The position numbers were made by a program, and so were the translations under genes. The notes under the pieces are model-generated. The model searched no databases. It saw nothing but the letters and a program-made list of their open reading frames with translations, and was not told the DNA's origin. Of a stretch of DNA of 64,000 nucleotides, positions 4,385 to 61,144 are shown piece by piece. The DNA is from Escherichia phage AV124, in the sequence record OR352954. One strand, given 5' to 3'. Numbering within the stretch: position 1 is the stretch's first letter; each line of letters opens with the position of its first letter.

Positions 4385-4412
4385 TATGGAAGCTAAATAA
4401 CCTGGGGGGTGT

Positions 4413-4580: not shown

Positions 4581-4771
4581 AGCTTTCACATTTTATTTAT
4601 GCTGTGTTAGGCCTTATGGCCCTGACCATGCTGACAACGTTGGGGCTTTCATTTACAGCAGGTCATGAGCAACAAACAAAAGAAATTTTGGGCGCAGGTT
4701 TCGGTATGTTCATGCTTGAATTCTTCCTGCTTCTTTTGGGAGGCGTGATTGTGGATACTTCCGGCTGGTAA
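4577..4771 (+). CDS. small membrane protein (64 aa)
   Basis: Start at internal ATG (MKLSHFIYAVLGLMALTMLTTLG...) overlapping the upstream stop; two hydrophobic segments. Confidence 0.5.
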   Translation: MKLSHFIYAVLGLMALTMLTTLGLSFTAGHEQQTKEILGAGFGMFMLEFFLLLLGGVIVDTSGW

Positions 4772-4781
4772 GGAGAAATAA

Positions 4782-4988
4782 ATGCGTGGATTTATGCCTT
4801 TGGTGAAACCTTTAGTAATCGTTGGAATAATTGTGGTAGTGGCGCTTTTTATTGTTGACACAGCAGATACCGTCACTCATAATTGTAAGCCTAACGGTGA
4901 GCAACGCCTTGCAAACAGTGCGGATGGCATTGTCGTTGAGAACAAACTGATCTGCGACGGTGGTCGCGTGAAGTGGTCTCGCTACTAA
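4782..4988 (+). CDS. small membrane protein (68 aa)
   Basis: RBS AAGGAGA; N-terminal hydrophobic helix. Confidence 0.55.
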   Translation: MRGFMPLVKPLVIVGIIVVVALFIVDTADTVTHNCKPNGEQRLANSADGIVVENKLICDGGRVKWSRY

Positions 4989-5023
4989 ATCCTGACTAAA
5001 TAATCTCAAGAGGAGAAAAACAA

Positions 5024-6112
5024 ATGACGATTACTCGCGGCCTTATCTTCGGGAAGTTTGCACCCCTGACCAACGGGCATATTGAATTCATTCGCCAGGC
5101 GGCTTCGCAGGTTAGTGCTCTGTACCTGTTCCTGTCATATGATCAGAAATTCGTTGATGCACAACCAGAATGGATTCGTCCAAAGCTGGGGCTTGCTGAT
5201 CGTTATCGTGACCTGCTGGATGTTATTGCCGATGAGGGACTTGACAACGTGAAGGTAGACTACGTTGATGAGTCGAATATCCCAGGATACCCTGAAGGCA
5301 GTGCTGCCTATGCAAAACTGATCCGTGAAAAGCAACCGTTCGTTAAGTACGATTTTGCTTTCTCTTCTGAGCCGGAGTATGAGTCTTACTTCAGTGAGTT
5401 CTTCCCTGAAGCGAAGCATGTAGTTATCGACGCAGAACGTAAAGCTGTTCCTATCTCAGCCACGATGATCCGTAATGATCCGTACAACAACTTCTACAAC
5501 CTAGCGTGGCCTGCACGTAAGCGCTTCATGAAGAAGGTTGCCATCATTGGTGTTGAGAGTACGGGCAAGACAACCCTGACAAAACATCTGGCGCATACCT
5601 TCGGTGCTGGTTGGATTCCTGAGATCGGACGGCTTATCTGTGAGCGTGAATATCACTCCAGTGAGTTCGCAATGTCTCGTGAAGACTACCTGCGTATCGC
5701 TATGGAGCACCGCCTGAAGGAGATGGAGTTGGCTGGTTGGGGTGATCGTGGGGTTATGTTCTCTGACACCACAAACCTGATCACACACTTCTCTGGTGTT
5801 TGTGCTGATAAGATCGACTACGCAGACCTGTTGTTCCGGACACTAAGCCGTGAAGAGAGCTACAACTTCTATGACCTGTTCCTGCTCCTCACACCAGAGG
5901 TTCCGTGGGTTGCTGATCCTCTTCGCTTGCAGGATACACCAGAGAAACGTAAAGAAACCCATTCTTTGCTTGACACAATGATCAGAGCATCTTACGATAC
6001 AAGCAAGGTGGTGGTTATCTCCGGCAGTGATTACGAAGAGCGTACTCAGAGAGCTGAAGAAGCTGTCCGTAAATTGCTGAATATCAAAGGAGAACAAGAT
6101 GGATCAAACTAA
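5024..6112 (+). CDS. bifunctional NMN adenylyltransferase / ribosylnicotinamide kinase (NadR-like, no DNA-binding domain)
   Basis: N-terminal nucleotidyltransferase motif GKFAPLTNGH (HxGH type); second half has P-loop IGVESTGKTT as in the NadR kinase domain; RBS AGAGGAG. Confidence 0.8.
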   Translation: MTITRGLIFGKFAPLTNGHIEFIRQAASQVSALYLFLSYDQKFVDAQPEWIRPKLGLADRYRDLLDVIADEGLDNVKVDYVDESNIPGYPEGSAAYAKLIREKQPFVKYDFAFSSEPEYESYFSEFFPEAKHVVIDAERKAVPISATMIRNDPYNNFYNLAWPARKRFMKKVAIIGVESTGKTTLTKHLAHTFGAGWIPEIGRLICEREYHSSEFAMSREDYLRIAMEHRLKEMELAGWGDRGVMFSDTTNLITHFSGVCADKIDYADLLFRTLSREESYNFYDLFLLLTPEVPWVADPLRLQDTPEKRKETHSLLDTMIRASYDTSKVVVISGSDYEERTQRAEEAVRKLLNIKGEQDGSN

Positions 6113-6524
6113 TCTGGCAATTCTTCAGTTCTTGAAAGAGGATTTGGAGAGAACCGAGGCATGGACTTTCCACTATGTTATTGAGGAGGCCTTAGACCTC
6201 AGTCCGATGGTGGTGGACATCTCCCTCACGCAACTGGAGCAGGGTAAGATGATCACTCGCTGCCTGTGTGGTTGCAATGGCATTATGATTGCCCCTGGTG
6301 GGTATGAGGTGCTTCCAAAGCCTGAAAAGAAAGAGCAGATTCTGGTCTGGAAAACAGCACAAGGAGATGTTGTCAGGTTGACTCATATGGCAGATGATCA
6401 TCTCCGTAACGCGATGGTATGGCTTCTGGAGCAGCCCTATTTGAGCGAAGAATACGAAGGTGTTGGTATAACGACATGGCTCAAGGAGATGTCAATTGAA
6501 CTGCACAGGAGATTTTCACTATAA
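6099..6524 (+). CDS. hypothetical protein (141 aa)
   Basis: ORF overlapping the upstream stop. Confidence 0.55.
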   Translation: MDQTNLAILQFLKEDLERTEAWTFHYVIEEALDLSPMVVDISLTQLEQGKMITRCLCGCNGIMIAPGGYEVLPKPEKKEQILVWKTAQGDVVRLTHMADDHLRNAMVWLLEQPYLSEEYEGVGITTWLKEMSIELHRRFSL

Positions 6525-6718
6525 TGGCGATCAAAGTAATCTCCGAAGGTACTCCGTTTACGGCAACGTGTAAGAGTTGCAGGTCTGTGGTTGAATACAA
6601 TTACACGGATACCTATGTATATTCCTACACTGTTGCTCGTGGAATGCGGGTAGGTCATGGTGCGTACCGCTGCATCACCTGTCCTGTGTGCTCATCAAGG
6701 ATCAGGCATAATGGCTAA
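6524..6718 (+). CDS. small Cys-rich protein, zinc-ribbon-like (64 aa)
   Basis: CxxC ... CxxC arrangement (CKSC ... CPVC). Confidence 0.5.
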   Translation: MAIKVISEGTPFTATCKSCRSVVEYNYTDTYVYSYTVARGMRVGHGAYRCITCPVCSSRIRHNG

Positions 6719-7064
6719 GGTGCTCAACTTCTACCACATTGGTAAAGTGATCCCTGAAAATGCCGAATACATGGGGCGAGCAATGCCCCATCTAGGCCTG
6801 AAGCAATCTAAATTCGCTAACCCATATAAGTTGTCGAAGGATGAGCCTCGTGGAGCCACCATTGAGCGCTATCGCGTGTGGTTGTGGCAACAGATCCGTT
6901 CTGGGAAAATTACTATTCAAGATCTTCTTGACTTGGATGGTAAAGACCTTGTATGCTTCTGTAAACAGCCGAACAAAGAGGTGGCATGTCATTGTGATGT
7001 GATACTTGCGGCAATCGAATGGGCAAAACAGAGGAAGACAAATGGCAATTCATGCAAAAAGTAA
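6711..7064 (+). CDS. hypothetical protein (117 aa)
   Basis: Start at ATG 6711 (MAKVLNF) overlapping the upstream stop; conserved Cys/His cluster. Confidence 0.5.
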   Translation: MAKVLNFYHIGKVIPENAEYMGRAMPHLGLKQSKFANPYKLSKDEPRGATIERYRVWLWQQIRSGKITIQDLLDLDGKDLVCFCKQPNKEVACHCDVILAAIEWAKQRKTNGNSCKK

Positions 7065-7278
7065 TGGTCTGCTGATCGGCGGTAAGATCATCGAGGAGAC
7101 ACTGACAGGCTGGGTTTTCCAGGCAATGGATAACAAAGGTACTAATTTTGTGTTCAAGTCAGATGAGAAGAACCAAGTTTTTGACGGACCGAATGCTGTT
7201 GACGAAGCAATGGCTTGGCAAACTAAAGTCCGGGCAGAAATGAAAAATAAAAAGAGAAAGGGGCGCAAAAATGGCTAA
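7042..7278 (+). CDS. hypothetical protein (78 aa)
   Basis: ATG 7042 preceded by AGAGGAAGA. Confidence 0.5.
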   Translation: MAIHAKSNGLLIGGKIIEETLTGWVFQAMDNKGTNFVFKSDEKNQVFDGPNAVDEAMAWQTKVRAEMKNKKRKGRKNG

Positions 7279-7531
7279 AGATACATGGGAAGTATTTCAG
7301 GATGACGACGAAATAAAGGTCATTGTCTCAGGCTCTCTTGAGGTAGGTGCCGGGTGGCGATCTTACAGCGACGTGTGTTCAGAGATTAATAACCTTGATG
7401 ATGCAAAACTCATTGCCGCAGCACCTGAATTGCTTGACGCGGTTCTGGATCTGAAGTATAAGTTATACGGTAACGGCGCAGCAAGTCCTAAAATCGAGGC
7501 ACTGTTGAAACGCTTGGAGAGAATTACATGA
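7271..7531 (+). CDS. hypothetical protein (86 aa)
   Basis: ORF in track, overlapping neighbours. Confidence 0.5.
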   Translation: MAKDTWEVFQDDDEIKVIVSGSLEVGAGWRSYSDVCSEINNLDDAKLIAAAPELLDAVLDLKYKLYGNGAASPKIEALLKRLERIT

Positions 7532-7758
7532 ACAAATACTACTTCGCCTTCGGAATGAACCAAGAAACGAAGGATGGTATGTCTCTCGGTAATTACTACG
7601 TCTGCATCGAAGCCAAACACCATTACGATGCCAGATTTGAGATGTTCGATGCTCGTGGCAGTTCTTGGTCTTTTTGCTACACAGAAGAAGAATTTGCTGG
7701 ACAACCAGAAAAATATGGATTAAAGTCTATTTCGTTAGACGAAGTTCGTATCCGATAA
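7528..7758 (+). CDS. hypothetical protein (76 aa)
   Basis: ORF in track. Confidence 0.5.
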   Translation: MNKYYFAFGMNQETKDGMSLGNYYVCIEAKHHYDARFEMFDARGSSWSFCYTEEEFAGQPEKYGLKSISLDEVRIR

Positions 7759-7778
7759 ACAATAGGAGAAAAGATTAC

Positions 7779-8480
7779 ATGATGAATCTATACGTAAAAA
7801 CAACCTGGACAGACTTCTATGGTTGGACAAAACTCGAATACCTTTGGCTTCTAATCTGTTCTGCATCCATTGCAACGGTCTCTATCGTTACAGGTGGTAC
7901 GGTGGTGGAGTTTATTTCCTCCGTCACAGGCATCGTCGGTGCGATTCTGGTTGCGAAAGGTAAACTTTCCAGCTACTATTGGGGCTTCATTGCCACGGTT
8001 CTGTATGCATATATCTCTTTCACGTACAAGTTGTACGGTGAGACGATTATGTACACCCTGTTGTTCACCCCCATGCAGGTCATTGGCGGGGTGATCTGGG
8101 CGCGTAAGTTAACCGTCTCTGCGGATGGTGAGCGTGCGGATGTCATAAAGAAATATCTGACCACAAAACAGCGCTGGATTGTTGGTATCGGGACATTGGT
8201 GACGATCGGATTATACGCCGAGTTCGTTAGCCTATTGAAAGGAAGTATGCCGGGTCTAGATTCTGCGACAGCAATCCTGTCAGTTCTAGCAACCTACCTG
8301 ATGATGGTTCGTTATGCAGAACAATGGCTGATTTGGCTACTGGTGAACACTGTTGCAATTGTTATGTGGGTACAAGCTACGATTCATCATCAAGGAGCTG
8401 GTTCTGCAATTTTGGCTATGTGGGTCACATTCTGGCTCAACTCTCTTTATGGTTGGTATAAGTGGAGAAAGAATGGCTAG
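7779..8480 (+). CDS. pnuC: PnuC-like nicotinamide riboside transporter
   Basis: Polytopic membrane protein (233 aa) with RYAEQWLIWLLVNTVAIV and C-terminal LYGWYKW, resembling conserved PnuC motifs; RBS AGGAGAA. Confidence 0.7.
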   Translation: MMNLYVKTTWTDFYGWTKLEYLWLLICSASIATVSIVTGGTVVEFISSVTGIVGAILVAKGKLSSYYWGFIATVLYAYISFTYKLYGETIMYTLLFTPMQVIGGVIWARKLTVSADGERADVIKKYLTTKQRWIVGIGTLVTIGLYAEFVSLLKGSMPGLDSATAILSVLATYLMMVRYAEQWLIWLLVNTVAIVMWVQATIHHQGAGSAILAMWVTFWLNSLYGWYKWRKNG

Positions 8481-8594
8481 AAAACTAGTGTACGGGGTGG
8501 GCGAGTGATTCAACGCTTTACGGAAGTTCTAGACGGTATACTGGAAGACATTTCAAATTTACGTGAAACAACCAATTTTGGAGGGGGGTAATAT

Positions 8595-8966
8595 ATGATT
8601 GGATTTTGGGAATGGTTGACCATGCACAACAACTGGGTTCCTGGCGTTATCATGTATGCAATGATGTTGCTATGGGCTTTGGTCATCGCTTTCCGTAGTA
8701 CGTGGAAAGGGTATGTTGTTGCAATCGTCTTGATGGCTGGTGTTGGTGGTACACTGTTTAACTTCCTCAGCACATACCTTGACGGTTATGGAATGTATCA
8801 GCGCCATTATACTACTTGCGCAAAGCCAGAGGCTGTGGTATCATTCTATGTGTTTGATGCAAAGAAAGAGCGCTGTTATAAACCTGTTGTTGGATTTGCA
8901 CCTGTTGATGATAATCAGGTAAAGACTCTGACACCGAAACAAATGGAGACTGGAGAATGGCTTTAA
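8595..8966 (+). CDS. membrane protein (123 aa)
   Basis: RBS GGAGGGGGG; two N-terminal hydrophobic helices. Confidence 0.55.
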   Translation: MIGFWEWLTMHNNWVPGVIMYAMMLLWALVIAFRSTWKGYVVAIVLMAGVGGTLFNFLSTYLDGYGMYQRHYTTCAKPEAVVSFYVFDAKKERCYKPVVGFAPVDDNQVKTLTPKQMETGEWL

Positions 8967-9241
8967 CTCGTGAAGAACGCACAGGTGCCAAGTTTGTCGA
9001 GATGTATGAAGCAAGCTTAGGGGACAATCCTAATCTGGAAGAACAGTTAGTTCTCTCATATTTCAAGAAAAATGTAGAGGACCTGCCCGTGGACTTGTCT
9101 GATCCAACAAGTTTCCACAAAGCATTCCGGCAGGTTGACATCTGCCGTAAAGGTTATCAAGACATGGTGATTTGGTCCCTGATGTCTGGTGGAGAATTAA
9201 ATACAATCTGGAAAGTTTTGGAGGAATTTTATGCTAATTGA
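8957..9241 (+). CDS. hypothetical protein (94 aa)
   Basis: ORF in track. Confidence 0.5.
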   Translation: MALTREERTGAKFVEMYEASLGDNPNLEEQLVLSYFKKNVEDLPVDLSDPTSFHKAFRQVDICRKGYQDMVIWSLMSGGELNTIWKVLEEFYAN

Positions 9242-50908: not shown

Positions 50909-50984
50909 TGGTTGCGAGCAGCGGAATCGAACCCCTCTGAACAAGCTTATGAGACTCGTGAATTCACCAGAATTCTAGCTCGCA
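50909..50984 (-). tRNA. tRNA-Met/Ile2 (anticodon CAT)
   Basis: Cloverleaf read by eye: acceptor TGCGAGC/GCTCGCA, D-arm GAAT-TCTGGTGA-ATTC, anticodon stem CGAGT/GCTTG with wobble pairs, loop CTCATAA, T-loop TTCGATT; CCA encoded. Confidence 0.7.
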
Positions 50985-50990
50985 ATTGTT

Positions 50991-51067
50991 TGGCGGGACG
51001 GGGTGGATTCGAACCACCGACACCATGATCTTCAATCAAGTGCTCTACCAAACTGAGCTACCGACCC
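50991..51067 (-). tRNA. tRNA-Phe (GAA)
   Basis: D-arm GCTC-AGTTTGGTA-GAGC, anticodon loop TTGAAGA, T-arm GGTGG-TTCGAAT-CCACC; CCA encoded. Confidence 0.75.
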
Positions 51068-51073
51068 GATGTG

Positions 51074-51158
51074 TGGTGGGCAAGGAGAGACTCGAACTCT
51101 CACGTCATAGGACGCCAGAACCTAAATCTGGTGCGTCTACCAATTTCGCCACTTGCCC
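51074..51158 (-). tRNA. tRNA-Leu (TAG)
   Basis: Anticodon arm CCAGA-TTTAGGT-TCTGG, long variable arm, T-loop TTCGAGT; CCA encoded. Confidence 0.75.
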
Positions 51159-51403
51159 TAATCGATCCTTCGGGAGAATGCCACCCTCGGACAAATACCA
51201 TGATAAGCACTTATAGGCAATATACTCATCAATCCTCGCTCCGTTTTGATATCGTTACCGCCACAAGGACGCATTGCGAACCATCAATATCCGAAGACTC
51301 GCCTTATCGTTGTACACCGAGTCGGGCTTCCTCTTTATTAGTTTGCTCTGTTACGCCACACGTAAATCCTGCAAGCCAGAAGGTCTCTACAGGAGAGCAA
51401 ATA

Positions 51404-51476
51404 TGGTGTGGATGGAAGGACTCGAACCTACATCAAACGGCTTCGTAGACCGTTGCCTGTCCGTCAGGACACCCAC
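51404..51476 (-). tRNA. tRNA-Arg (ACG)
   Basis: Anticodon arm ACGGT-CTACGAA-GCCGT, T-loop TTCGAGT, acceptor GTGGGTG/CATCCAC; CCA encoded. Confidence 0.75.
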
Positions 51477-51482
51477 ATAATT

Positions 51483-51559
51483 TGGTCTCCATAGAGTGAC
51501 TCGAACACTCAACCTCCTGGTCCCAAACCAGGCGCTCTACACTATTGAGCTACACGGAG
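51483..51559 (-). tRNA. tRNA-Pro (TGG)
   Basis: D-arm GCTC-AATAGTGTA-GAGC, anticodon arm CCTGG-TTTGGGA-CCAGG, T-arm GAGTG-TTCGAGT-CACTC; CCA encoded. Confidence 0.8.
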
Positions 51560-51657
51560 AGAAGTGCAGAATTTTAATTATCCCAGACACTGCAACTGGT
51601 ATTGCTGGCTAGCTAATAAGTTCTCCAAGCAAAGTTTTAATTTGCAAGGAGGATGTT

Positions 51658-51734
51658 TGGCGGGACCGAAGGGAATCGAACCCTCATTTTCCGCATCGAC
51701 AGTGCGGCACCATTACCTTGTCAGCCACGGCCCC
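51658..51734 (-). tRNA. tRNA-Asp (GTC)
   Basis: Anticodon arm CCGCA-CTGTCGA-TGCGG, T-loop TTCGATT, acceptor GGGGCCG/CGGTCCC; CCA encoded. Confidence 0.8.
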
Positions 51735-51741
51735 ATAAATT

Positions 51742-51826
51742 TGGCGACGAGCGTAGGAATTGAACCTACATAGAGCTAATGCTCGCGGATTAACAGTCCG
51801 CCGTTCTACCAATGAACCAGCTCGTC
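51742..51826 (-). tRNA. tRNA-Asn (GTT) with enlarged variable region
   Basis: D-arm GTTC-ATTGGTA-GAAC and anticodon arm GCGGA-CTGTTAA-TCCGC; variable region is 15 nt with a GAGC-ATTA-GCTC mini-hairpin; CCA encoded. Confidence 0.65.
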
Positions 51827-51886
51827 ATTTAAATACTTTATCAGTGAAAACAACCTTTTGCAAGAATTATTTTAACTGATTTAATT

Positions 51887-51962
51887 TGGCGGGAAGGGAA
51901 GGATTTTAACCCATCGTCTCTTCGCTTAAAAAGCGAATGCCTGACCGCTCGGCTACCTACCC
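51887..51962 (-). tRNA. tRNA-Lys (TTT)
   Basis: Anticodon arm TTCGC-TTTTTAA-GCGAA, T-loop TTAAAAT; acceptor has one mismatch; CCA encoded. Confidence 0.65.
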
Positions 51963-51970
51963 ATATTGTT

Positions 51971-52059
51971 TGGAGGAGAGCAACAGAATCGAACTGTCAC
52001 CGTATCTCTACGGTGGGACCGGGTTCAAACCGGAGCCTGCACCATGCAGCCTGCTCTCC
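51971..52059 (-). tRNA. tRNA-Ser (TGA)
   Basis: Anticodon arm CCGG-TTTGAAC-CCGG, long variable arm, T-loop TTCGATT; CCA encoded. Confidence 0.7.
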
Positions 52060-52064
52060 AAAAT

Positions 52065-52150
52065 TGGCGGAAGATGCAAGGGTTGAACTTGCACACCCTT
52101 TCGGATGGCGGTTTAGCAAACCGCTGTGGCTACCATTTCACCAATCTTCC
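52065..52150 (-). tRNA. tRNA-Ser (GCT)
   Basis: Anticodon arm GCGGT-TTGCTAA-ACCGC, long variable arm, T-arm GCAAG-TTCAACC-CTTGC; CCA encoded. Confidence 0.75.
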
Positions 52151-52296
52151 AATTGTTCTTTAATTTCTTTACGAAGATCTGCTTTTTCTTTCGCACGAGT
52201 AATAGGGACTGATTGAATCTCTTCTGCAACACCACAGTTACTACCGTGAAGTCTACAGCGTCCAAACACTTTCTTGCAACGCAAAAGTTTCTGCAT
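52138..52296 (-). CDS. small Cys-containing protein inside the tRNA array (52 aa)
   Basis: Start at internal ATG 52296 (MQKLLRCKKVFGRCRLHGSNCGV...) with RBS GGAGG at 4-nt spacing; three Cys in 13 residues; the 3-prime end of the frame runs into the adjacent tRNA-Ser. Confidence 0.35.
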   Translation of the reverse strand: MQKLLRCKKVFGRCRLHGSNCGVAEEIQSVPITRAKEKADLRKEIKEQLEDW

Positions 52297-52311
52297 AAAT
52301 CCTCCATAAAG

Positions 52312-52401
52312 TGGCGGAGAAGGAGAGAATTGAACTCTCAAGCCGTTTTACCAGTCAGCACCTTTCCAAGGTGTTTTCGTCACCTATCGATTTGCTTCTC
52401 C
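52312..52401 (-). tRNA. atypical type-II tRNA, possibly tRNA-Ser (GGA)
   Basis: Acceptor GGAGAAG/CTTCTCC and T-arm GAGAG-TTCAATT-CTCTC are clear; candidate anticodon arm ACACC-TTGGAAA-GGTGC; D-arm irregular; 90 nt; CCA encoded. Confidence 0.45.
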
Positions 52402-52405
52402 ATAT

Positions 52406-52482
52406 TGGGGTGGCTAGTGGGACTCGAACCCACATAGGACTGCCTCACAAGCAGTGTCATTATCCAGTTATGATATAGCCAC
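52406..52482 (-). tRNA. tRNA-His (GTG)
   Basis: Anticodon arm ACTGC-TTGTGAG-GCAGT, T-arm GTGGG-TTCGAGT-CCCAC; CCA encoded. Confidence 0.7.
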
Positions 52483-52554
52483 ATCAAAAGGCACTCCCAG
52501 CTTTCGGGTGAATTTCAAGAGCGGCTGCGCAACCACTTGAAGTACCTTTTGATA

Positions 52555-52630
52555 TGGCAGGAAGATCAGGACTTGAACCTGAACTACGGATTTCAAAGAC
52601 CCGTGTGCTAACCAATTACACCATCTTCCT
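52555..52630 (-). tRNA. tRNA-Gln (TTG)
   Basis: Anticodon arm CGGGT-CTTTGAA-ATCCG, T-loop TTCAAGT, D-arm GTGT-AATTGGTTAG-CACA; CCA encoded. Confidence 0.75.
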
Positions 52631-52785
52631 ATAATCGGTGAGGGCGCCTGAAACCGAGCCAGGCTAAGTATTGGACTGCAATCCTCAACTTATTTTGTTG
52701 CCGCCATGCTTACTTATGACCGACAAGAGTTCCCGTTGCAGCGGTAGATCATAGTCATTTTCAACATCCGGTCGCCCCCATTATT

Positions 52786-52859
52786 TGGAGCGTCTAGAGG
52801 GAATCGAACCCTACTCTGCGAGGCTTGGAAGGCCTGCGACACACCTCGTGCTTAGACGC
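52786..52859 (-). tRNA. tRNA-Trp (CCA)
   Basis: Anticodon arm AGGCC-TTCCAAG-GGCCT, T-loop TTCGATT; CCA encoded. Confidence 0.7.
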
Positions 52860-52866
52860 TTTAAAT

Positions 52867-52941
52867 TGGTGGGAGTATCTGGGATCGAACCAGAGACCTC
52901 TCGATTATCGGTCGAGCGTTCTACCGCTGAACTATACTCCC
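52867..52941 (-). tRNA. tRNA-Ile (GAT)
   Basis: D-arm GTTC-AGCGGTA-GAAC, anticodon arm CTCGA-CCGATAA-TCGAG, T-arm TCTGG-TTCGATC-CCAGA; CCA encoded. Confidence 0.8.
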
Positions 52942-53074
52942 ATTAATTGGTGCGCCCCTTTATAAAAATGTCTTCAAGCGGAGTCTTTATTGAAACAATA
53001 AATTTACTCACTCACCTAATCTTATTTTTACTCAGATGGACGTCTTTAGCGGAGCGTCCTCCACCTTCTTCGTT

Positions 53075-53161
53075 TGGTACGCCGTGATAGAGTCGAACTA
53101 CCCGAGCCTTTTGAGCAACAGATTTACAGTCTGTCCCGCTACCCCTACGGTCTAACGGCGC
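53075..53161 (-). tRNA. tRNA-Tyr (GTA)
   Basis: Anticodon arm ACAGA-CTGTAAA-TCTGT, long variable arm, T-loop TTCGACT; CCA encoded. Confidence 0.7.
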
Positions 53162-53163
53162 AT

Positions 53164-53514
53164 TTAGCCTTGTTTGAACTGAACAATATCTGTTGTGAAT
53201 GGCTTACTCATAGGAGTAGATTTCTTATCATCAACATTAGTTGTTTCAGCTTCTTCATTCTCTTCATCGAAGTAATCAGAAAGCATTTGTTCACCTTTCT
53301 CAATTACAAATCGAGCAATATTTTCCCTGATGTTGTCCTTTGTTGTGGCGCTTGTCATAAGGTCTTTTAGCACTTTATGAGCATCAGGAATCATAGCAAT
53401 CATATTGGTCTTAAGGTCAAGGATATTCTTCTCAAGCTGAATAGCATTAGACTCTTCTTTAAGGGGTCTACCTTTTCCTCTACGACGCTTTGTAAGTTGT
53501 TGTTTTACTGCCAT
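53164..53514 (-). CDS. hypothetical acidic protein inside the tRNA array (116 aa)
   Basis: ORF with ATG start; Lys/Glu-rich. Confidence 0.5.
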   Translation of the reverse strand: MAVKQQLTKRRRGKGRPLKEESNAIQLEKNILDLKTNMIAMIPDAHKVLKDLMTSATTKDNIRENIARFVIEKGEQMLSDYFDEENEEAETTNVDDKKSTPMSKPFTTDIVQFKQG

Positions 53515-53599
53515 AATAACCCCACTTATTAATATTATCAGATTTAAATTTATCTGTCAAGGGTCATTTTATCATTTTTTATAAAAATATTCAACAACT

Positions 53600-53674
53600 T
53601 GGAGCACGGTAGGTGAATCGAACACCTGACATTTCTTTTGCAGAGAAAGCTGTTGCCACTCCAGCAACCGTGCT
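53600..53674 (-). tRNA. tRNA-Cys (GCA)
   Basis: Anticodon arm TTTCT-CTGCAAA-AGAAA, T-arm AGGTG-TTCGATT-CACCT; CCA encoded. Confidence 0.75.
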
Positions 53675-53789
53675 TTCGGGGGACCCGATTATTTCAATTC
53701 GCTTCCACACATTCGGGTCAAGACGTGTCCTATAGTCTTTCGACGCTTCCACAGCTCGGAGTAAACCCGTCCCGGCTGTCCTGTGAATT

Positions 53790-53871
53790 TGGCGAAGGCG
53801 GCAGGATTCGAACCCGCATACTCCAATTACTCGATTAACGACGGGTTAGAAGCCCGTTGAGATACGCCCTC
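53790..53871 (-). tRNA. atypical tRNA-like gene (anticodon-like loop TCT, no recognisable D-arm)
   Basis: Acceptor GAGGGCG/CGCCTTC and T-arm GCGGG-TTCGAAT-CCTGC are clear; only one further hairpin ACGGG-CTTCTAA-CCCGT, followed by a 23-nt unpaired region; CCA encoded. Confidence 0.4.
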
Positions 53872-53877
53872 TTAAAC

Positions 53878-53966
53878 TGGTGCGGGATGAGGGATTCGAA
53901 CCCTCAAGGCCTAGAGGCCTACGAAGTCTTAAGCCTCGTGTGTACTGCCAATACCACCAATCCCGC
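53878..53966 (-). tRNA. tRNA-Leu (TAA)
   Basis: Anticodon arm CGAGG-CTTAAGA-CTTCG, long variable arm, T-arm GAGGG-TTCGAAT-CCCTC; CCA encoded. Confidence 0.75.
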
Positions 53967-54148
53967 AGAAATCTATTTTGTGAAGTCCCGATGTCCTGAC
54001 AACCGCCGTTGTCTCTCCGAAGCGCCTCTACTTGCGAAGAAGAGCCTACGCCATCCCTTTCATCAACTTGATATCAAAGCCGACACAGAGATCACACCCC
54101 ACTAGATGCAGGAGATTTTAAGTGTTTCAGAACCTCGCAGAATAGATT

Positions 54149-54257
54149 TGGAGCAGGGTGGTGGAATCTAACCACCTATGTATTTAGCCATGCTGTTAGT
54201 TCTGGCATATTTTTCAGGTCTGGATGGACCTCGCGGTTGACAAACCGCCTACCCTGC
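54149..54257 (-). tRNA. oversized tRNA-like gene (109 nt) with internal insertion
   Basis: Acceptor GCAGGGT/ACCCTGC, D-arm GCGG-TTTGTCAA-CCGC, T-arm GGTGG-TTAGATT-CCACC; stem AGGTC/GACCT closes a 6-nt loop; about 37 extra nt before the T-arm; CCA encoded. Confidence 0.35.
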
Positions 54258-54259
54258 AT

Positions 54260-54334
54260 TGGCTTCTCGAACAGGAATCGAACCTGTACCGTCCCTATCG
54301 TGGGACCGCTCTAACCAAAGTAAGCTATCGAGAA
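54260..54334 (-). tRNA. tRNA-like gene with 6-nt anticodon-position loop
   Basis: Acceptor TTCTCGA/TCGAGAA, D-arm GCTT-ACTTTGGTTA-GAGC, T-arm ACAGG-TTCGATT-CCTGT; stem GTCCC/GGGAC closes loop ACGATA; CCA encoded. Confidence 0.5.
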
Positions 54335-54340
54335 ATTGTT

Positions 54341-54416
54341 TGGTGCTCGCAGTAGGACTTGAACCCACGACCTTCTCCTTACAAGGGAGTTGCTCTACCA
54401 ACTGAGCTATACGAGC
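54341..54416 (-). tRNA. tRNA-Thr (TGT)
   Basis: D-arm GCTC-AGTTGGTA-GAGC, anticodon loop CTTGTAA, T-arm GTGGG-TTCAAGT-CCTAC; CCA encoded. Confidence 0.75.
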
Positions 54417-54817
54417 AAGAAATGCTGTTTCCGATTAACAGCCTGGAGGAGTCAGTTAGCCATATCTTGTGAGCTAAGATCCTATATCCAGGATTTAAGT
54501 AATCAAAGAAATTTTAGCTTTATGGTTTAGAAGTTTCAAGTTTAAACATTAAGCTTTGAACGATAATCTTTGAATGCTGAATGTTGAAGTCTTTCGAATT
54601 CGCGATTCGACAATTTCGATCAAGCCGCATCATTGTGCGGTCTGACGGAAAGATATGTTTAAGTATCATCCTATACGATTATGTTCGGAGCAGTTTAACC
54701 TCCGGCCCCGGTAGAGGCAAGATGTTTCTGACTTCGCTAACCAAAAACAGCATTTAAAAACTTTACCAGCTATCCACAGGAATTACAAGATGTTAATCAA
54801 GAATTCCTGCAAATATT

Positions 54818-55465
54818 TTAGATTGATCCTTCAATCTCTACTTCAGTCCGTGCATTTGACTCGGAAAGAACAAAGTCAACGTTAGACTTAAAGTCTTCAA
54901 TCTCTGCTTCCAGAGAACGAATGCGATCTGCCAGGCCCAGTGGATCGACAATGGAAGGAGTTCCCATGCTACGAACTGGCGCTTCTACTACAGCCAACTG
55001 TGCAGCGTCTGGCGCTTTATCACGTTGGACATATGGAGCACGAGCTGCTTCAAGCTTCGCTTCGAATTCCTGTGTATCACGGTTCAGGCGAACCTGAGCA
55101 TGATTATACTGAGACTTCAGTTTGCCAAGCAGAAGCTCTTTGAAAACGATGGTGCGTTTACGCTCAATCGCCTGAGCTACGGTCATAGACTCGCCAGCGA
55201 TCTCAACTTTTGTTACAGCGTTTGACTGAACAACTTTCGCCTTCAGGTCGTCGCGAACAGCCAGAAGATCCTGAACACCCTGGAAGTCTGCCTGAGCAGA
55301 TTTCTCGAAGTCCTCAACGCTCTGGATAGAGCCTGGGATCTGACGGTTTGCGTCAGTGCCTTTCGCGATGTGAATCGTGTTCAGCGCTTCGATACGCTTC
55401 TGAATCTTTTCCTCAACCTTGGTCAGGGTAGCCAGAGCGCGGGTTACAGACATCTTAGTAGACAT
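54818..55465 (-). CDS. coiled-coil protein (215 aa)
   Basis: Ala/Glu/Lys/Arg-rich heptad-like sequence. Confidence 0.5.
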   Translation of the reverse strand: MSTKMSVTRALATLTKVEEKIQKRIEALNTIHIAKGTDANRQIPGSIQSVEDFEKSAQADFQGVQDLLAVRDDLKAKVVQSNAVTKVEIAGESMTVAQAIERKRTIVFKELLLGKLKSQYNHAQVRLNRDTQEFEAKLEAARAPYVQRDKAPDAAQLAVVEAPVRSMGTPSIVDPLGLADRIRSLEAEIEDFKSNVDFVLSESNARTEVEIEGSI

Positions 55466-55539
55466 AGAATTCTCCTCTCATGAAATTTAAAATTTAAGTT
55501 ACTTCAAATATTTGCCGACATCCGTGTCGGCACTACGCA

Positions 55540-56151
55540 TTAGTTTTTGCCAGTATTAACAACTACGCCCTGGCGGTTAGCATCAGCTTTTGCGATTTCC
55601 AGACGGGTTTCGCGTTCAGCCTTCAGATCACCACGCGCTGCTTCAAGCTGTTCGGTCAGCATTGCAATGCGGTCATCCTTAGCCTTGCTATTAGCAGTAA
55701 GTTCTGCAATTGCAACCTTGTGAGCAGATTCCAGATTTGCCTTAACCGCATTCAGTTCGATTGCAGCGCTACGTTTAACGTCGGCAACTGCGCTTTCTAC
55801 AGCTTCAGCATTGTTCTGCTGAGAGATCGCCAGCTCTGCACGAAGGTCTTCAACAACACCCGGTTCTACAGCTACAAGGCCGCGAGATTTCAGGATAGAG
55901 TTCAGAACGGAATCTTCGTTTTCCAGAACTTTGATCTTCAGCTTGGATTTTTCTTCAGCCAGTTTTTCGTTGAACTGAACTTCAATTTGTCCCAGTTCCT
56001 GCTGCTTAAACTGAATTTCCTGACTGATCTTTTCAGACCCTTCTGCCAGAGATTGCAGTTCAGCGACTACTTTAGTCAGACCAGTAGCGGCAGTGGTTAC
56101 TGCTTTAGTGGCACGTTCAGTTACGGAAATTACAGTTTTAGAATCAGTCAT
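55540..56151 (-). CDS. coiled-coil protein (203 aa)
   Basis: Ala/Glu/Lys-rich heptad-like sequence. Confidence 0.5.
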   Translation of the reverse strand: MTDSKTVISVTERATKAVTTAATGLTKVVAELQSLAEGSEKISQEIQFKQQELGQIEVQFNEKLAEEKSKLKIKVLENEDSVLNSILKSRGLVAVEPGVVEDLRAELAISQQNNAEAVESAVADVKRSAAIELNAVKANLESAHKVAIAELTANSKAKDDRIAMLTEQLEAARGDLKAERETRLEIAKADANRQGVVVNTGKN

Positions 56152-56189
56152 TAAGTTATCCTTTGCGTTAAATTAGGTTTTAAATACTA

Positions 56190-56330
56190 CACTTACAGAT
56201 TGTGTTTGTCAAGCGAATCTTTGATTATTTCTTCGGTGGTAGGGTTGTTTTCAAACCATGACCAATAATACCAAAGAACAAGCAGGAAAGAGATCACTGA
56301 CATGATGATGAAGATAACACCGACACTCAT
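56190..56330 (-). CDS. small membrane peptide (46 aa)
   Basis: Below the track cutoff; translated by eye (MSVGVIFIIMSVISFLLVLWYYWSWF...); ATGA overlap with upstream gene. Confidence 0.4.
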
Positions 56331-56515
56331 CGTACAACGTCCTTAATGGAGTCACAAACTTCACCAACGACGTCTGCGGTAGGTGATACGACAATCTCAT
56401 CAGCGGCGTCAAAAACTTCTGCGGCTACATCTACAAAAGGTTCTGCAACAGTTGCAGTGACAACAACAGCAGTACCAACAATATCGCCAGCCATACGTAA
56501 TAATGTCCCTAACAT
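56327..56515 (-). CDS. small acidic protein (62 aa)
   Basis: Start at internal ATG (MLGTLLR) with RBS AAGGAGAA. Confidence 0.45.
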   Translation of the reverse strand: MLGTLLRMAGDIVGTAVVVTATVAEPFVDVAAEVFDAADEIVVSPTADVVGEVCDSIKDVVR

Positions 56516-56642
56516 TTTGTTCTCCTTTTGGTTCCGATTTGAAACGAGAGCACTTTCGTCCATTTAAGCTATCGCCCTGTGCCACTACGCGAGCCGGTCC
56601 AGCAAGAACGGGAGTCGAACCCGTATCTCTCTCATTTCAAAT

Positions 56643-56717
56643 TTGGTGGGGCATGAAGGATTCGAACCTTAGACAAACCGATTAAGAGTCTGCTACTCTA
56701 CCACTGAGTTAATACCC
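56643..56717 (-). tRNA. tRNA-Lys (CTT), anticodon stem imperfect
   Basis: Acceptor GGGGTAT/ATGCCCC, D-arm ACTC-AGTGGTA-GAGT, T-loop TTCGAAT, anticodon loop CTCTTAA with one stem mismatch; CCA encoded. Confidence 0.6.
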
Positions 56718-56782
56718 CGAAATAAGATCCGTGTTTTTAAAGACGTTTCACGGAATCGTCATTGTTCCCCATGCCGGAGGAA

Positions 56783-57094
56783 TTATTTTTTCTTCTTACC
56801 ATTTGGAGCTACGGTTTCAATAACCTTAGCTTCCTTCACTTTACCAGCACGTTCACGTTTTGTCTTACCTGTGCGAACACGGTAAGATGCAGAGATAATC
56901 TGACCACCCTCAATGCGGGTTTCTGACTTGTATTCACCCTTACGGCGATCAAATACCGAAACAGTCTTCTCTACACCACCAAGACGTACATCATGCGGAG
57001 CAGAATGCGTCTGAGTAGACTTTGACTCAAACTGGAAAGGCTGTTTGATAGCGTCAATAGCAGATACTTTCTTAGTAGAATTTTTCTTAGTCAT
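56783..57094 (-). CDS. basic hypothetical protein (103 aa)
   Basis: ORF with Lys/Arg-rich termini. Confidence 0.5.
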   Translation of the reverse strand: MTKKNSTKKVSAIDAIKQPFQFESKSTQTHSAPHDVRLGGVEKTVSVFDRRKGEYKSETRIEGGQIISASYRVRTGKTKRERAGKVKEAKVIETVAPNGKKKK

Positions 57095-57186
57095 AATTTT
57101 CTCCTTTGCATTTTATTTGGGAATTTCTCCCGTTTATGTTCATGAGGATATTAACTCAATCAATTATCCTCGTCAACATTTTTTAA

Positions 57187-57264
57187 TTGGTGACCCCCGG
57201 AGGATTCGAACCTACCTACCTCTCGATTATGAGTCGATTGCTCATACCTTATGAGCTTGAGGGC
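57187..57264 (-). tRNA. tRNA-Met/Ile2 (CAT)
   Basis: Anticodon loop CTCATAA, T-loop TTCGAAT, acceptor GGCCCTC/GGGGGTC with wobble pairs; CCA encoded. Confidence 0.65.
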
Positions 57265-57267
57265 CTT

Positions 57268-57340
57268 ATCGTTCAGAGTGGACTTGAACCACTGACCTTA
57301 TCCGTATGAAGAACATGCTCTACCAACTAAGCTACTGAAC
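57268..57340 (-). tRNA. tRNA-Met/Ile2 (CAT), no encoded CCA
   Basis: Acceptor CGTTCAG/CTGAACG, D-arm GCTT-AGTTGGTA-GAGC, anticodon arm TGTTC-TTCATAC-GGATA, T-arm AGTGG-TTCAAGT-CCACT; 3-prime end lacks CCA. Confidence 0.65.
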
Positions 57341-57365
57341 GGTTGTACTGTTGATGTGGTAGATA

Positions 57366-58605: not shown

Positions 58606-60282
58606 TTACAGTTGAGCGGCTGCGCGTTCACGAATCGTTGTCAGGTCTTCATCGACAATCAATTTACCGTTGTAGAACACACGACGCAGTTCATTATCTT
58701 CAGACTGTACTTCTTCCAGTTGGCAATTGTCAATCAGTTCTAACTGACCGAACATGTTGCGAACAACTTTGAGGAAGCCTTTCGCAGATTTCTTACTGAG
58801 GTCGGTCTTAGGCTCTTTGACAACCATGATCTGCTGACCATCAATCACAGCACCAGTTGCCTTCACAGCCATGCCCAGTGAATCGCGGGTTGTATACTGA
58901 GTGGTGAAAGAACCGACGCCGTAAACAATGTTGCTGGATGCGAAGCCTTTTTCTTTCAGACGTTCAAAGATGTCTTTTGCACGAGCAACAGTGATTGAGT
59001 CACCGTAGATCAGACCAACGTGGGTGTCGAGGACCTTGTAACCTTTGGAGTTAACTTCACCACCAAAGATCTCCCACAGGCACTGAATTGCACCAATTGC
59101 CTCATGACGAGTAATCTCTTTATCGTCATCATCTGTCTGTGACAGAAGAACATAACGGTCGGTGTCTTTGAAGTATGCAACTTCTGTCTTCAGTGCGAAG
59201 GAACCTTTGTTATAGAAACCGTCTTCTGTTTCGAATTCTTCAATTCGATAACCAGCAATGATATGTTCAGGAATGCCGGAGTCAGGACGGAAAACAACAC
59301 GACCATCACGTGCCATGATTTCCTGTTTCAGGATCGCTGCTGCTTTGGTGATAATAGCCCAGAAATCATAGCTGTCTGCTACGTAGGAAACAAAACCTTT
59401 CGGGAAAATTTCCGTGATATAGCGTTTCAGGAACTCAACTTCAGCCAGAAAACGTTTCTGGTCGAGGCTCATAAACTCTTGTGTTACAGTATTCTCTTCG
59501 ATTTCTTTTACAATAAATCCGATGTTCGTGGTTGCAACAGAGTGTTCAGATGCAGGAATAGAACCAGCAACGAACTTGCCTTTCATGTTGTAATAACGAC
59601 GAGCATACAGAATCGCTGGGATAGTGTCTGTACCCATAGAGTTGATCAGTTGACCGAATTCGCTCTGTGCTGCGTCGTGAGTACCAGCTTCACCGCGATA
59701 TGCGAAGCAGTGGTTCTGGAATGCAACATGGTCGTTGTTATCACAGGTCGCAGCAGCCCATTTTTCGGACAGCTTGCGATACTGCCAGAACGTCGTTGCA
59801 GTTGTGATAGTTTTCCAAGTTTCTGCGGAGATCACACTTTCCAAGAAGTTAGGCAACCAGTAAAAATCCGGGTGCGTATTCTGGATTGTAAACATTGGGA
59901 TCTGAACCGGAGAAAGCGTTCCTTCTGGAAGAGCACGGATTTCCAGAGGAAGATAACCGAGATCATGAAGAGCCTCAAAGCCCCAGGTTTCTACCATGCC
60001 AATGCCGATGCTGGAGTCGCAAACCTCACGATAATCAGCAACCGCTACTTCTTTCGGGAGGTTGAAGAAGTTATTGTTGAACATGTCGATAAGGAACCAC
60101 TTAATAAATCCCTGAAGGCCAGCAAACATGACACGCTGGTCGTTATCAGCGAAGTGAATGAAGTGCTTCGCGTTACGAGGGGTCATGTTATCCTGAACAA
60201 TTTCAGAACGTTTATCATACATGGAGATGTGTGAAGGTTTGTAAAAGTCAGCGAACAGGATAGGACTTTCTTGATTAAGCAT
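58606..60282 (-). CDS. nadV: nicotinamide phosphoribosyltransferase (Nampt)
   Basis: Start at ATG 60282 with RBS AAGGAGAAA; N-terminal LFADFYKPSH resembles the Nampt signature (LLATDSYKVTH in the human enzyme); size about 558 aa; adjacent to prs. Confidence 0.75.
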   Translation of the reverse strand: MLNQESPILFADFYKPSHISMYDKRSEIVQDNMTPRNAKHFIHFADNDQRVMFAGLQGFIKWFLIDMFNNNFFNLPKEVAVADYREVCDSSIGIGMVETWGFEALHDLGYLPLEIRALPEGTLSPVQIPMFTIQNTHPDFYWLPNFLESVISAETWKTITTATTFWQYRKLSEKWAAATCDNNDHVAFQNHCFAYRGEAGTHDAAQSEFGQLINSMGTDTIPAILYARRYYNMKGKFVAGSIPASEHSVATTNIGFIVKEIEENTVTQEFMSLDQKRFLAEVEFLKRYITEIFPKGFVSYVADSYDFWAIITKAAAILKQEIMARDGRVVFRPDSGIPEHIIAGYRIEEFETEDGFYNKGSFALKTEVAYFKDTDRYVLLSQTDDDDKEITRHEAIGAIQCLWEIFGGEVNSKGYKVLDTHVGLIYGDSITVARAKDIFERLKEKGFASSNIVYGVGSFTTQYTTRDSLGMAVKATGAVIDGQQIMVVKEPKTDLSKKSAKGFLKVVRNMFGQLELIDNCQLEEVQSEDNELRRVFYNGKLIVDEDLTTIRERAAAQL

Positions 60283-60343
60283 GTTTTGTTTCTCCTTTGT
60301 TTGTTTAATAGGGCGATTGTACGCCCACTTATTCATTTGTCAA

Positions 60344-61144
60344 TTAAAAGTTTTCGGTCCAGTCGTGGTACGCATAGATTTCATCAACGCCGCCTTCGTA
60401 GATAACTTCTTTGCCGAAGGAAAAGATACCGTGTGTTACGTAAAGAATAACACGTTTTGCACCTTTTGCCTTCAATGCTTGTGCCAGGGCAATGAATGTG
60501 CGACCACCATCGCAGATATCATCGACAATAACACACTCGCGACCTTCAACATCACCGAAAACAGCAGTCCCGGTAATTTCATTTGTCTTCAGATCGCGCA
60601 CTTTTCCAGCTTCCACCAGAGGGAGGCGGAGACGATCGGAAACTTTCTGAGCTTTTTTACGTGCTCCGGCGTCAGGTGCCACGATAACAACATCTTTTCC
60701 AACCAGGCCTTCATGGAATTTCGCAATAAGAGCATCCTGACCACGAATTTTAACGTTGTTAAGTAGTGCTGCGGAGACATCGCTGTGCGGATCATCGACA
60801 ATTATCTTATCAAACCCAAGAGAGTTGACGATATTTGCGAAAACTTTGATGGATAACGCTTCACCAGGTTGCATTACGCGGTCCTGACGTGCATATGGAA
60901 TATATGGCAAGTGCAAAGTAAATTGTGCAGTATGATGGAGACCTTCAAGGCGAGAACATGCATCCACCAACATGGCAAGTGCCATAACATCAGTAGAATT
61001 TTTAATTTTCGCAGTGATGTCTACGAAACCAATACCACCTTTTGGGGTATGCGTCATGTCAATTTTAACCTGTTCTTCACCACCTTTGAACGTAAAGTGA
61101 TCAACAGGAACTACCAGTTTGTTCAGACGAAGTTCTAAACTCAT
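60344..61144 (-). CDS. prs: ribose-phosphate pyrophosphokinase (PRPP synthetase)
   Basis: Type I phosphoribosyltransferase PRPP-binding motif VIVDDICDGGRT plus upstream VIVAPDAGA. Confidence 0.8.
   Translation of the reverse strand: MSLELRLNKLVVPVDHFTFKGGEEQVKIDMTHTPKGGIGFVDITAKIKNSTDVMALAMLVDACSRLEGLHHTAQFTLHLPYIPYARQDRVMQPGEALSIKVFANIVNSLGFDKIIVDDPHSDVSAALLNNVKIRGQDALIAKFHEGLVGKDVVIVAPDAGARKKAQKVSDRLRLPLVEAGKVRDLKTNEITGTAVFGDVEGRECVIVDDICDGGRTFIALAQALKAKGAKRVILYVTHGIFSFGKEVIYEGGVDEIYAYHDWTENF

Follow-up and report, generated by a model that had tools for sequence, protein, structure and literature searches.

Organization of the locus

The 64,000-nucleotide stretch of Escherichia phage AV124 DNA analysed here (sequence record OR352954; hereafter, the window) contains an intact pnuC open reading frame, predicted to encode a nicotinamide riboside (NR) transporter, and, upstream of it on the same strand, a nadR-like gene whose product combines an NMN adenylyltransferase (NMNAT) domain with a ribosylnicotinamide kinase (RNK) domain (Table 1). 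The two genes are near each other and not adjacent, as 1.67 kb and five small ORFs separate them. An earlier note, made from the letters of the window, had described the ORF at 7779-8480 as a polytopic membrane protein encoded next to a kinase. Its coordinates are exact and the product contains eight hydrophobic segments; a kinase-bearing NadR-like gene is likewise present on the same strand, whereas the immediate adjacency does not hold.

Table 1. Position of the features discussed in the text (numbering is that of the window; functions are predicted from sequence)
Feature	Position	Strand	Remarks
Sigma-70-like promoter match	4855..4883	+	TTGACA-17-CATAAT, 11/12; best match upstream of nadR, consensus scan only
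nadR-like gene	5024..6112	+	362 residues; NMNAT and RNK domains, no N-terminal HTH
Small-ORF block between nadR and pnuC	6099..7758	+	6099-6524, 6524-6718, DUF4326 gene, 7271-7531 and 7528-7758; alternative ORF 7006-7278
DUF4326 gene	6711..7064	+	PF14216, 66.9 bits; ORF could begin at 6657; lies between nadR and pnuC
Shine-Dalgarno-like AGGAGA	7764..7769	+	9 nt 5' of the pnuC ATG; read from sequence
pnuC	7779..8480	+	Intact ORF, 233 residues (coordinates include the stop codon); predicted PnuC-family NR transporter
Q100 codon	8076..8078	+	PMQ motif, TM3; equivalent by alignment to Q94 of Bas30_87 and Q99 of 4QTN (chain numbering)
WxxW(x)3D/N motif, TM6	8325..8348	+	Codons W183-L-I-W186-L-L-V-N190; alignment to 4QTN and phage homologues
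tRNA genes	50909..57341	-	Block of 21 genes
NAMPT-like gene	58606..60336	-	PF04095; PHROG 448, 645 bits; 7 nt from the Prs-like gene
Prs-like gene	60344..61144	-	PF13793, PF00156 and PF14572

The pnuC frame opens with an ATG at 7779-7781, which is followed by a second ATG at 7782, and closes with a TAG at 8478-8480; the stop codon of the preceding ORF lies at 7756-7758. Orthologues of the protein begin with MMNLY or MxNxxLY, in agreement with this start. We also considered a TTG start at 7665, yielding a protein of 271 residues, and rejected it: this extension overlaps the preceding conserved ORF, lacks an RBS and is used by no orthologue.

From nadR to pnuC the genes are tightly packed on one strand. 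The small ORFs between nadR and pnuC match PHROGs without assigned function, and the content of this block differs among relatives, which carry between 1 and 7 ORFs at this place. The sigma-70-like site upstream of nadR is a candidate start for a plus-strand transcription unit running through pnuC. We found no strong terminator-like site between positions 5024 and 8480, and co-transcription of nadR and pnuC is therefore a plausible inference from the promoter-like site before nadR and the lack of a strong terminator-like hairpin between the two genes. A search of positions 4000-9000 for Rfam families, including the NAD+ riboswitches, returned no match at E<=1.

Family membership and topology of the PnuC protein

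The pnuC product matches the Pfam NMN_transporter family (PF04973) along profile positions 2-175 of 175, with a score of 125.4 bits (gathering score 27.3, E=3e-36), so that the profile search proposed in the earlier note lands well above the cut-off. Assignment to the family is reinforced by PHROG 1880 (253 bits, E=5e-75), labelled 'PnuC-like nicotinamide mononucleotide transport', and refined by TIGR01528, the NCBIfam equivalog for the 'nicotinamide riboside transporter PnuC' (110.5 bits, cut-off 42.45). NF011926, which models the enterobacterial PnuC subfamily, yields 50.8 bits for a cut-off of 335.

The sole relative in the PDB is 4QTN, the NR transporter PnuC of Neisseria mucosa, to which the protein aligns without a gap over residues 13-231 (E=6.8e-40). 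This structure was reportedly described by Jaehme and colleagues in 2014. Hydropathy analysis delineates eight hydrophobic segments, spanning approximately residues 19-38, 41-59, 64-82, 89-108, 133-153, 162-177, 183-200 and 208-227, and a manual count places 15 lysine or arginine residues in the predicted cytoplasmic loops and termini versus 2 on the other side of the membrane. The predicted topology thus fits the eight-helix layout of 4QTN, with both termini in the cytoplasm, and the topology check put forward in the earlier note also comes out in favor of a PnuC-type transporter. The core of Pnu transporters consists of seven transmembrane helices arranged as 3+1+3, and an additional N-terminal helix, as observed in 4QTN, has been linked to trimerisation (Jaehme et al. 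2018, PMC5749112).

An AlphaFold2 model computed from the single PnuC sequence (mean pLDDT 44, pTM 0.23) is too poor to test the fold; its helices (residues 18-38, 41-59, 65-86, 93-114, 129-156, 162-178, 183-203 and 207-232) agree with the hydropathy segments. We consider the question of the fold to be settled by the gapless match to 4QTN.

Ligand-binding residues and predicted substrate

Both sequence strings singled out in the earlier note as PnuC-like signatures are present in the protein, EQWLIWLLVNT at residues 181-191 and YGWYKW at residues 224-229. The first contains the WxxW(x)3D/N ligand-binding motif found in TM6 of the Pnu family, which ends with an asparagine in PnuC and with an aspartate in the thiamine transporter PnuT (Jaehme et al. 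2018, PMC5749112); the motif of the window's protein closes with an asparagine, as in PnuC, and not with the aspartate of PnuT. The gate tryptophans of TM3 and TM7, located at the cytoplasmic end of each helix, are also kept: W107 matches W106 of 4QTN, and W229 matches W228.

We compared the putative binding site with those of two NR-binding references, 4QTN and the phage protein Bas30_87, which binds NR with a Kd of ~0.66 µM and loses NR binding upon N45A, Q94A or N180A substitution (Yan et al., PMC13464706). The proteins of the T5-like Salmonella phage SE20 served as stand-ins for Bas30_86 and Bas30_87 in the identity values and, for the transporter, in the alignment. Q94 of Bas30_87 is conserved in the window's PnuC as Q100 and N180 as N190, and N45 corresponds to G51, a position also occupied by a glycine in the NR-bound 4QTN protein. 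Four residues of 4QTN have been described as contacting NR, Q99, Q171, N189 and Y217 in chain numbering (Yan et al., PMC13464706), and their counterparts in the window are Q100, T172, N190 and F218. The SE20 protein has a methionine and a phenylalanine at the positions of T172 and F218, so that T172 matches neither reference.

The features in favor of NR specificity are the TIGR01528 score, the asparagine of the TM6 motif, Q100 together with N190, and the neighboring NadR with its RNK domain, with T172 and F218 as the deviating positions. Given that PF04973 spans all Pnu subfamilies, and that T172, F218 and the glycine at the N45 position depart from Q171 and Y217 of 4QTN and from Bas30_87, respectively, the protein might instead transport thiamine (PnuT-like), riboflavin (PnuX/RibM-like), NMN or another nucleoside, in which case the NadR neighbourhood would be coincidental. 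We regard such a change of substrate as very unlikely, as the protein clearly exceeds the cut-off of a PnuC equivalog, carries the PnuC and not the PnuT version of the TM6 motif, and has an NR transporter as its best and only relative in the PDB. Moreover, its pairing with a NadR bearing a ribosylnicotinamide kinase has been kept in at least six distinct phage lineages, and a protein of the Bas30_87 type, with methionine and phenylalanine at the deviating positions, retains submicromolar NR binding. NR is the predicted substrate.

The NadR-like partner

The nadR-like product matches PHROG 3462 with 467 bits as well as the Pfam families CTP_transf_like and AAA_28. It harbors the GKFAPLTNGH and ISATMIR motifs of a cytidylyltransferase-like NMNAT domain, and the GVESTGKTT motif of a P-loop kinase domain. 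The alignment with the full-length NadR model NF005988 covers positions 65-408 of 411 and begins only at position 65, which indicates that the HTH part is missing.

The best PDB match of the protein is the chain of entries 9x6f and 9x6h (E=3.5e-59), ahead of bacterial NadRs. With an offset of six residues, this chain carries the residues named for Bas30_86 by Yan et al. at 17/17 positions, and we therefore take it to be the phage protein Bas30_86. Fourteen of these 17 published key residues are identical in the window's enzyme. Of the 17, the residues that have been mutated in Bas30_86 (K10, F11, S37, E80, P84, G89, F110, S112, D115, V139, I141, E230 and D275; PMC13464706) are all identical in the window, with the exception of D115, which is replaced by a glutamate. 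The nadR-like gene evolves under purifying selection, with dN/dS values of 0.05-0.18.

Conservation and distribution of the nadR/pnuC pair

The DNA of the region is ~92-93% identical to that of Klebsiella, Proteus and Raoultella phages belonging to the Vequintavirinae, such as Mydovirus. At the protein level, PnuC shares 95% identity with its counterpart in the Raoultella phage Ro1 (MG250486) and 86% with those of K54_rec2 and Seu621, and NadR reaches up to 97%. Annotated relatives comprise the Cronobacter phage GAP31 (JN882284), the Klebsiella phage KB57 (KT934943), Ro1, Seu621, K54_rec2 and the Proteus phage Mydo, and the GenBank labels given to the genes of these relatives include 'ribosyl nicotinamide transporter', 'PnuC-like nicotinamide mononucleotide transport' and 'nicotinamide-nucleotide adenylyltransferase'.

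A comparison with four orthologues returned dN/dS values of 0.05-0.16 for pnuC, with dS up to saturation, a signature of purifying selection. The gene itself is a mosaic, with Ro1-like ends and a K54_rec2-like middle: the middle is ~97% identical to K54_rec2, over the last ~60 codons identity falls to ~60% with K54_rec2 and reaches 97-100% with Ro1, and the recombination break falls near codon 183. Many megablast matches stop at ~8327, at the EQW motif of pnuC.

This recombination break, together with the location of pnuC within a variable block of small accessory ORFs, might be taken to mean that the gene is a decaying or unexpressed passenger, a moron remnant without function in the phage. 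We find this reading hardly credible in view of the intact frame preceded by a good RBS, the low dN/dS values, the preservation of all family motifs, and the retention of pnuC across Vequintavirinae genera with many host genera, namely Klebsiella, Raoultella, Proteus, Cronobacter, Salmonella, Enterobacter and Erwinia.

In every lineage sampled, a nadR-like gene lies beside or near pnuC, and the pairing is conserved in the Vequintavirinae, the T5-like phages, XbC2, ICP1, PBC2 and a MAG contig. The two genes are adjacent in the T5-like Salmonella phage SE20, adjacent or overlapping in the Xanthomonas jumbo phage XbC2, adjacent in the Vibrio phage ICP1, where both are unannotated and were confirmed by BLAST, and adjacent in reversed order in the Bacillus phage PBC2; nadR lies directly 5' of pnuC in MAG contig L010. 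Within the Vequintavirinae, the spacing varies, with one ORF between nadR and pnuC in the Erwinia phage Hena1, four in Ro1, five in SEW_6S, as in the window, and seven in K54_rec2. Adjacency is not required for the pair to function, or at any rate to be maintained by purifying selection.

Homologues of PnuC and of NadR occur in 780 and 731 of 50,697 phage records, respectively, and their counts run parallel from genus to genus (PnuC/NadR: Salmonella 178/176, Klebsiella 47/48, Escherichia 38/37, Bacillus 24/24, Lactobacillus 18/18 and Erwinia 14/14). Among 185,579 species genomes of bacteria and archaea, screened by a scan that detects close relatives only, pnuC had no close cellular relative, and nothing enterobacterial matched. 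The best match, at 62%, is a MAG contig that also bears nadR. This value and the score far below the cut-off of NF011926 indicate that pnuC is not a recent capture from the host.

The earlier note knew of no such transporter as a regular component of the phage NAD+ salvage modules described so far, a view that these data and the literature contradict: relatives have been annotated for years, PHROG 1880 exists as a family, homologues number 780 records, and the association was published in 2024 and in 2026. NadR has been catalogued in phages (Iyer et al. 2022), and phage NadR genes were reported to lie usually in an operon with PnuC and proposed to form possibly another reconstitution pathway (Osterman et al. 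2024). The pair from a T5-like phage was subsequently characterized as NARP3, and a BLAST census returned 124 NARP3 operons, mostly from Salmonella and Escherichia T5-like phages (PMC13464706). The PnuC/NadR locus is thus already known, and the window adds at most a further member in a lineage largely missed by that 124-operon census. With the gene family, the NadR pairing, the mechanism and the anti-defence role all published, we attach little weight to the locus as a discovery. Its interest lies in the reach of the NARP3-type route, which extends far beyond 124 T5-like operons: ~780 records in the set of 50,697 are concerned, among them Klebsiella-infecting Vequintavirinae, which are therapy candidates.

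A DUF4326 gene near the pair

One of the small ORFs between nadR and pnuC encodes a DUF4326 protein. The gene occupies the same interval in K54_rec2, Ro1 and SEW_6S and lies ~700 nt upstream of nadR in Hena1, and is thus close to nadR and pnuC in each of the Vequintavirinae examined. We found no sequence relative of the protein in the PDB, and the label 'NrdA-like ribonucleotide reductase' that it bears in GenBank and in PHROG finds no support in Pfam.

DUF4326 proteins are predicted to act on the terminal phosphates of ADP-ribose derivatives (Iyer and Aravind; Iyer et al. 2022). The Vequintavirinae version of the locus might be an extended module, in which a predicted enzyme of the rhodanese-phosphatase type would feed or tune the NAD+ pathway, for example by turning a phosphorylated breakdown product into a substrate of NadR; we deem this unlikely. 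A role of DUF4326 as a specific third part of the module is unsupported: the family occurs in 572 phage records with a genus spread unlike that of the pair, and the Escherichia phage Antha carries a copy with neither nadR nor pnuC within 5 kb. Should the extended module nevertheless prove real, import by PnuC/NadR, recycling by a NARP1-like pair (see below) and this extra step would together constitute a hitherto undescribed, layered NAD+ strategy.

A putative NAD+ reconstitution pathway and its purpose

Taken as a whole, the locus is best explained as a NARP3-type NAD+ reconstitution pathway formed by PnuC and NadR, with a likely anti-defence pay-off, a reading to which we assign a probability of about 0.8. 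The profile scores, the topology, the WxxWxxxN motif and the conserved pairing uphold the central proposal of the earlier note, that of a PnuC-family NR transporter predicted to work with a kinase-bearing NadR. In our model, a PnuC-type uniporter made during infection by this Vequintavirinae (Mydovirus-like) phage would insert into the inner membrane and pass NR down its gradient; the kinase domain of the NadR-like enzyme would convert NR to NMN, trapping it in the cell, and the NMNAT domain would convert NMN to NAD+. Such a scheme follows the general behavior of Pnu transporters, which operate by facilitated diffusion coupled to metabolic trapping by phosphorylation (PMC5749112). In canonical bacterial NadR, the HTH domain confers transcriptional control that depends on NAD. 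Given the lack of this domain in the phage enzyme and of any NAD+ riboswitch match, the route would not be subject to such control.

The likeliest pay-off would be that NAD+ is kept available when host NADase defences, such as Sir2-HerA, DSR or Thoeris-type systems, deplete it. Bas30_86 and Bas30_87 together restore NAD+ and protect phages T7 and lambda against Sir2-HerA and DSR1; these effects depend on NR, with an EC50 of ~4-6 µM (PMC13464706). We infer for AV124 the substrate, the co-expression and expression timing of the two genes, and the anti-defence benefit; the last of these needs external NR. Since the hosts carry their own pnuC and nadR, the benefit of the phage copies would depend on dose and regulation.

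A putative second NAD+ module lies at 58606..61144, where a Prs-family gene is directly followed by a NAMPT-family gene, the gene content and order that define NARP1 (Osterman et al. 2024). AV124 is likely to have two NAD+ routes that complement each other, by importing NR on the one hand and by recycling ADPR and nicotinamide on the other, and a single phage can hold a PnuC/NadR pair together with a NARP1-like pair.

The presence of this second module lends some weight to the possibility that the same biochemistry serves another purpose, namely to raise NAD+ as a general metabolic booster for those functions of the phage that consume NAD+ or depend on it and for a large burst, and not primarily to counter defences. 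K54_rec2 is moreover annotated with a Sir2-family NAD-dependent deacetylase just past the region matching the window, which, together with the Prs/NAMPT pair, suggests a broad investment in NAD+ metabolism, and in medium and jumbo phages the NAD+ synthesis genes NadR, NadV and NadM have been described to co-occur (Iyer et al. 2022). We hold this possibility to be a tentative one, the only phenotype reported for the T5-like pair being rescue from defences that deplete NAD+, whereas in other respects the pair had little effect or cost (PMC13464706). The two purposes are compatible, and they differ in emphasis and not in mechanism. NAD+ reconstitution with a likely anti-defence benefit remains our preferred reading of the locus, which bears on predicting which therapeutic phages evade NAD+-depleting defences.

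Comparison with known systems

The closest functional precedent is NARP3, formed by the PnuC-like Bas30_87 and the NadR-like Bas30_86 of the T5-like phage Bas30 (TrudiRoth) and demonstrated both biochemically and genetically (Yan et al., Sci Adv 2026, PMC13464706). The window shares with NARP3 the same two protein families, a NadR that consists of NMNAT and RNK without an HTH, the same strand and the order nadR then pnuC, and the same predicted logic of NR import, phosphorylation and adenylation. A transporter and an HTH-less RNK/NMNAT enzyme encoded in one phage genome, the combination that characterizes NARP3, are both found here. Several differences set the two apart: the window's proteins are only 37.9% (PnuC) and 35.0% (NadR) identical to the SE20 stand-ins, the compact two-gene operon is absent and gives way to the interposed small ORFs, one mutagenised position of the transporter deviates (N45, a glycine in the window), and AV124 is a Vequintavirinae myovirus, whereas Bas30 belongs to the Demerecviridae.

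The Vequintavirinae relatives carry direct orthologues at the same genomic position, with intervening ORFs that vary in number and identity. Among solved structures, 4QTN is ~35% identical to the window's PnuC over 219 residues and resembles it in its eight transmembrane helices, the WxxWxxxN motif, the equivalents of Q99 and N189, and the gate tryptophans, and differs from it at Q171 and Y217, which are replaced by threonine and phenylalanine.

In bacteria such as Haemophilus and Salmonella, PnuC/NadR salvage likewise couples uptake to trapping by the NadR kinase; the window's copy differs in being encoded by a lytic phage and in having a NadR partner devoid of the regulatory HTH. NARP1 (Adps and Namat) and NARP2 (Nampt and Nmnat) (Osterman et al. 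2024) serve the same purpose, the rebuilding of NAD+ during infection. They start from ADPR and nicotinamide, breakdown products that are recycled inside the cell, whereas the PnuC/NadR pair would draw on extracellular NR through a membrane transporter.

The pnuC gene is mosaic and lies beside a variable region

The nicotinamide riboside transporter gene pnuC is mosaic in its nucleotide identity to Klebsiella phage K54_rec2 versus Raoultella phage Ro1. Codons 100-200 share ~97% nucleotide identity with K54_rec2, whereas across the last 60 codons this value drops to ~60% and identity to Ro1 reaches 97-100%. Many megablast matches stop at the EQW motif inside pnuC, at a position (~8327) that, judged from these alignments, looks like a recombination junction within the gene. 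Ro1 carries a 227-aa ORF directly after pnuC, overlapping its end; this ORF is missing in the window and is replaced by a non-coding gap, which is followed by a conserved membrane protein gene.

The interval between pnuC and nadR, which encodes a NadR-like protein, forms a variable cassette of small ORFs, numbering one in Erwinia phage Hena1, four in Ro1, five in the window and seven in K54_rec2. The related phage SEW_6S harbors an HNH endonuclease within this block. Besides a zinc-ribbon-like ORF, the cassette of the window includes members of PHROGs 22435, 1273 and 13997, each a family of unknown function. It also contains a DUF4326 gene, which lies near the nadR/pnuC pair in every Vequintavirinae relative examined. 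Its public label, 'NrdA-like ribonucleotide reductase', is unsupported by Pfam; Iyer and Aravind predicted a role for DUF4326 in ADP-ribose-phosphate processing. A specific link between DUF4326 and the pair is unproven, since some of the 572 phage records containing the domain have no such pair nearby.

Features of the AV124 window
Feature	Position	Strand	Details
Cassette between nadR and pnuC	6099..7758	+	small ORFs
Zinc-ribbon-like ORF	6524..6718	+	64 aa; four cysteines
DUF4326 gene	6711..7064 (ORF start possibly 6657)	+	PF14216, 66.9 bits
pnuC	7779..8480	+	mosaic
Non-coding gap	8481..8594		114 nt
Conserved membrane protein	8595..8966		123 aa; PHROG 7941
tRNA cluster	50909..57341	-	21 genes (ARAGORN), including tRNA-Met x2, tRNA-Ser x3
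tRNA in cluster	54260..54334		two-base 'anticodon' call, no definite identity (ARAGORN)
NAMPT-like gene	58606..60336	-	576 aa; PF04095; PHROG 448, 645 bits
Prs-like gene	60344..61144	-	266 aa; Pribosyltran_N, Pribosyltran, Pribosyl_synth

Comparison with known NAD+ pathways

The nearest relative of the nadR/pnuC pair outside the phage database resides on a 45-kb contig (CAZHPR010000006.1, 3790..5636), where the two genes adjoin and their products are 62% (PnuC) and 41% (NadR) identical to those of the window. The corresponding MAG is binned as Candidatus Saccharibacteria, and the contig may derive from a phage binned into a bacterial MAG. Vibrio phage ICP1 (MW794141) encodes clear homologues of NadR (40% identity, E=2e-70) and PnuC (36%, E=5e-44), with 4807..5847 and 5863..6567 both labelled 'hypothetical protein' in the record. 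These ICP1 genes likewise adjoin, in keeping with NARP3, the phage pathway of PnuC-like and NadR-like proteins.

A second NAD+ gene pair in the window consists of the Prs-like gene followed, after 7 nt, by the NAMPT-like gene. In K54_rec2, a Sir2-family gene lies just past the point matching the window's end. The Prs-like/NAMPT-like pair is the same in gene content and order as NARP1, the Adps-Namat NAD+ reconstitution pathway, and phage AV124 therefore probably possesses two NAD+ routes, recycling and import.
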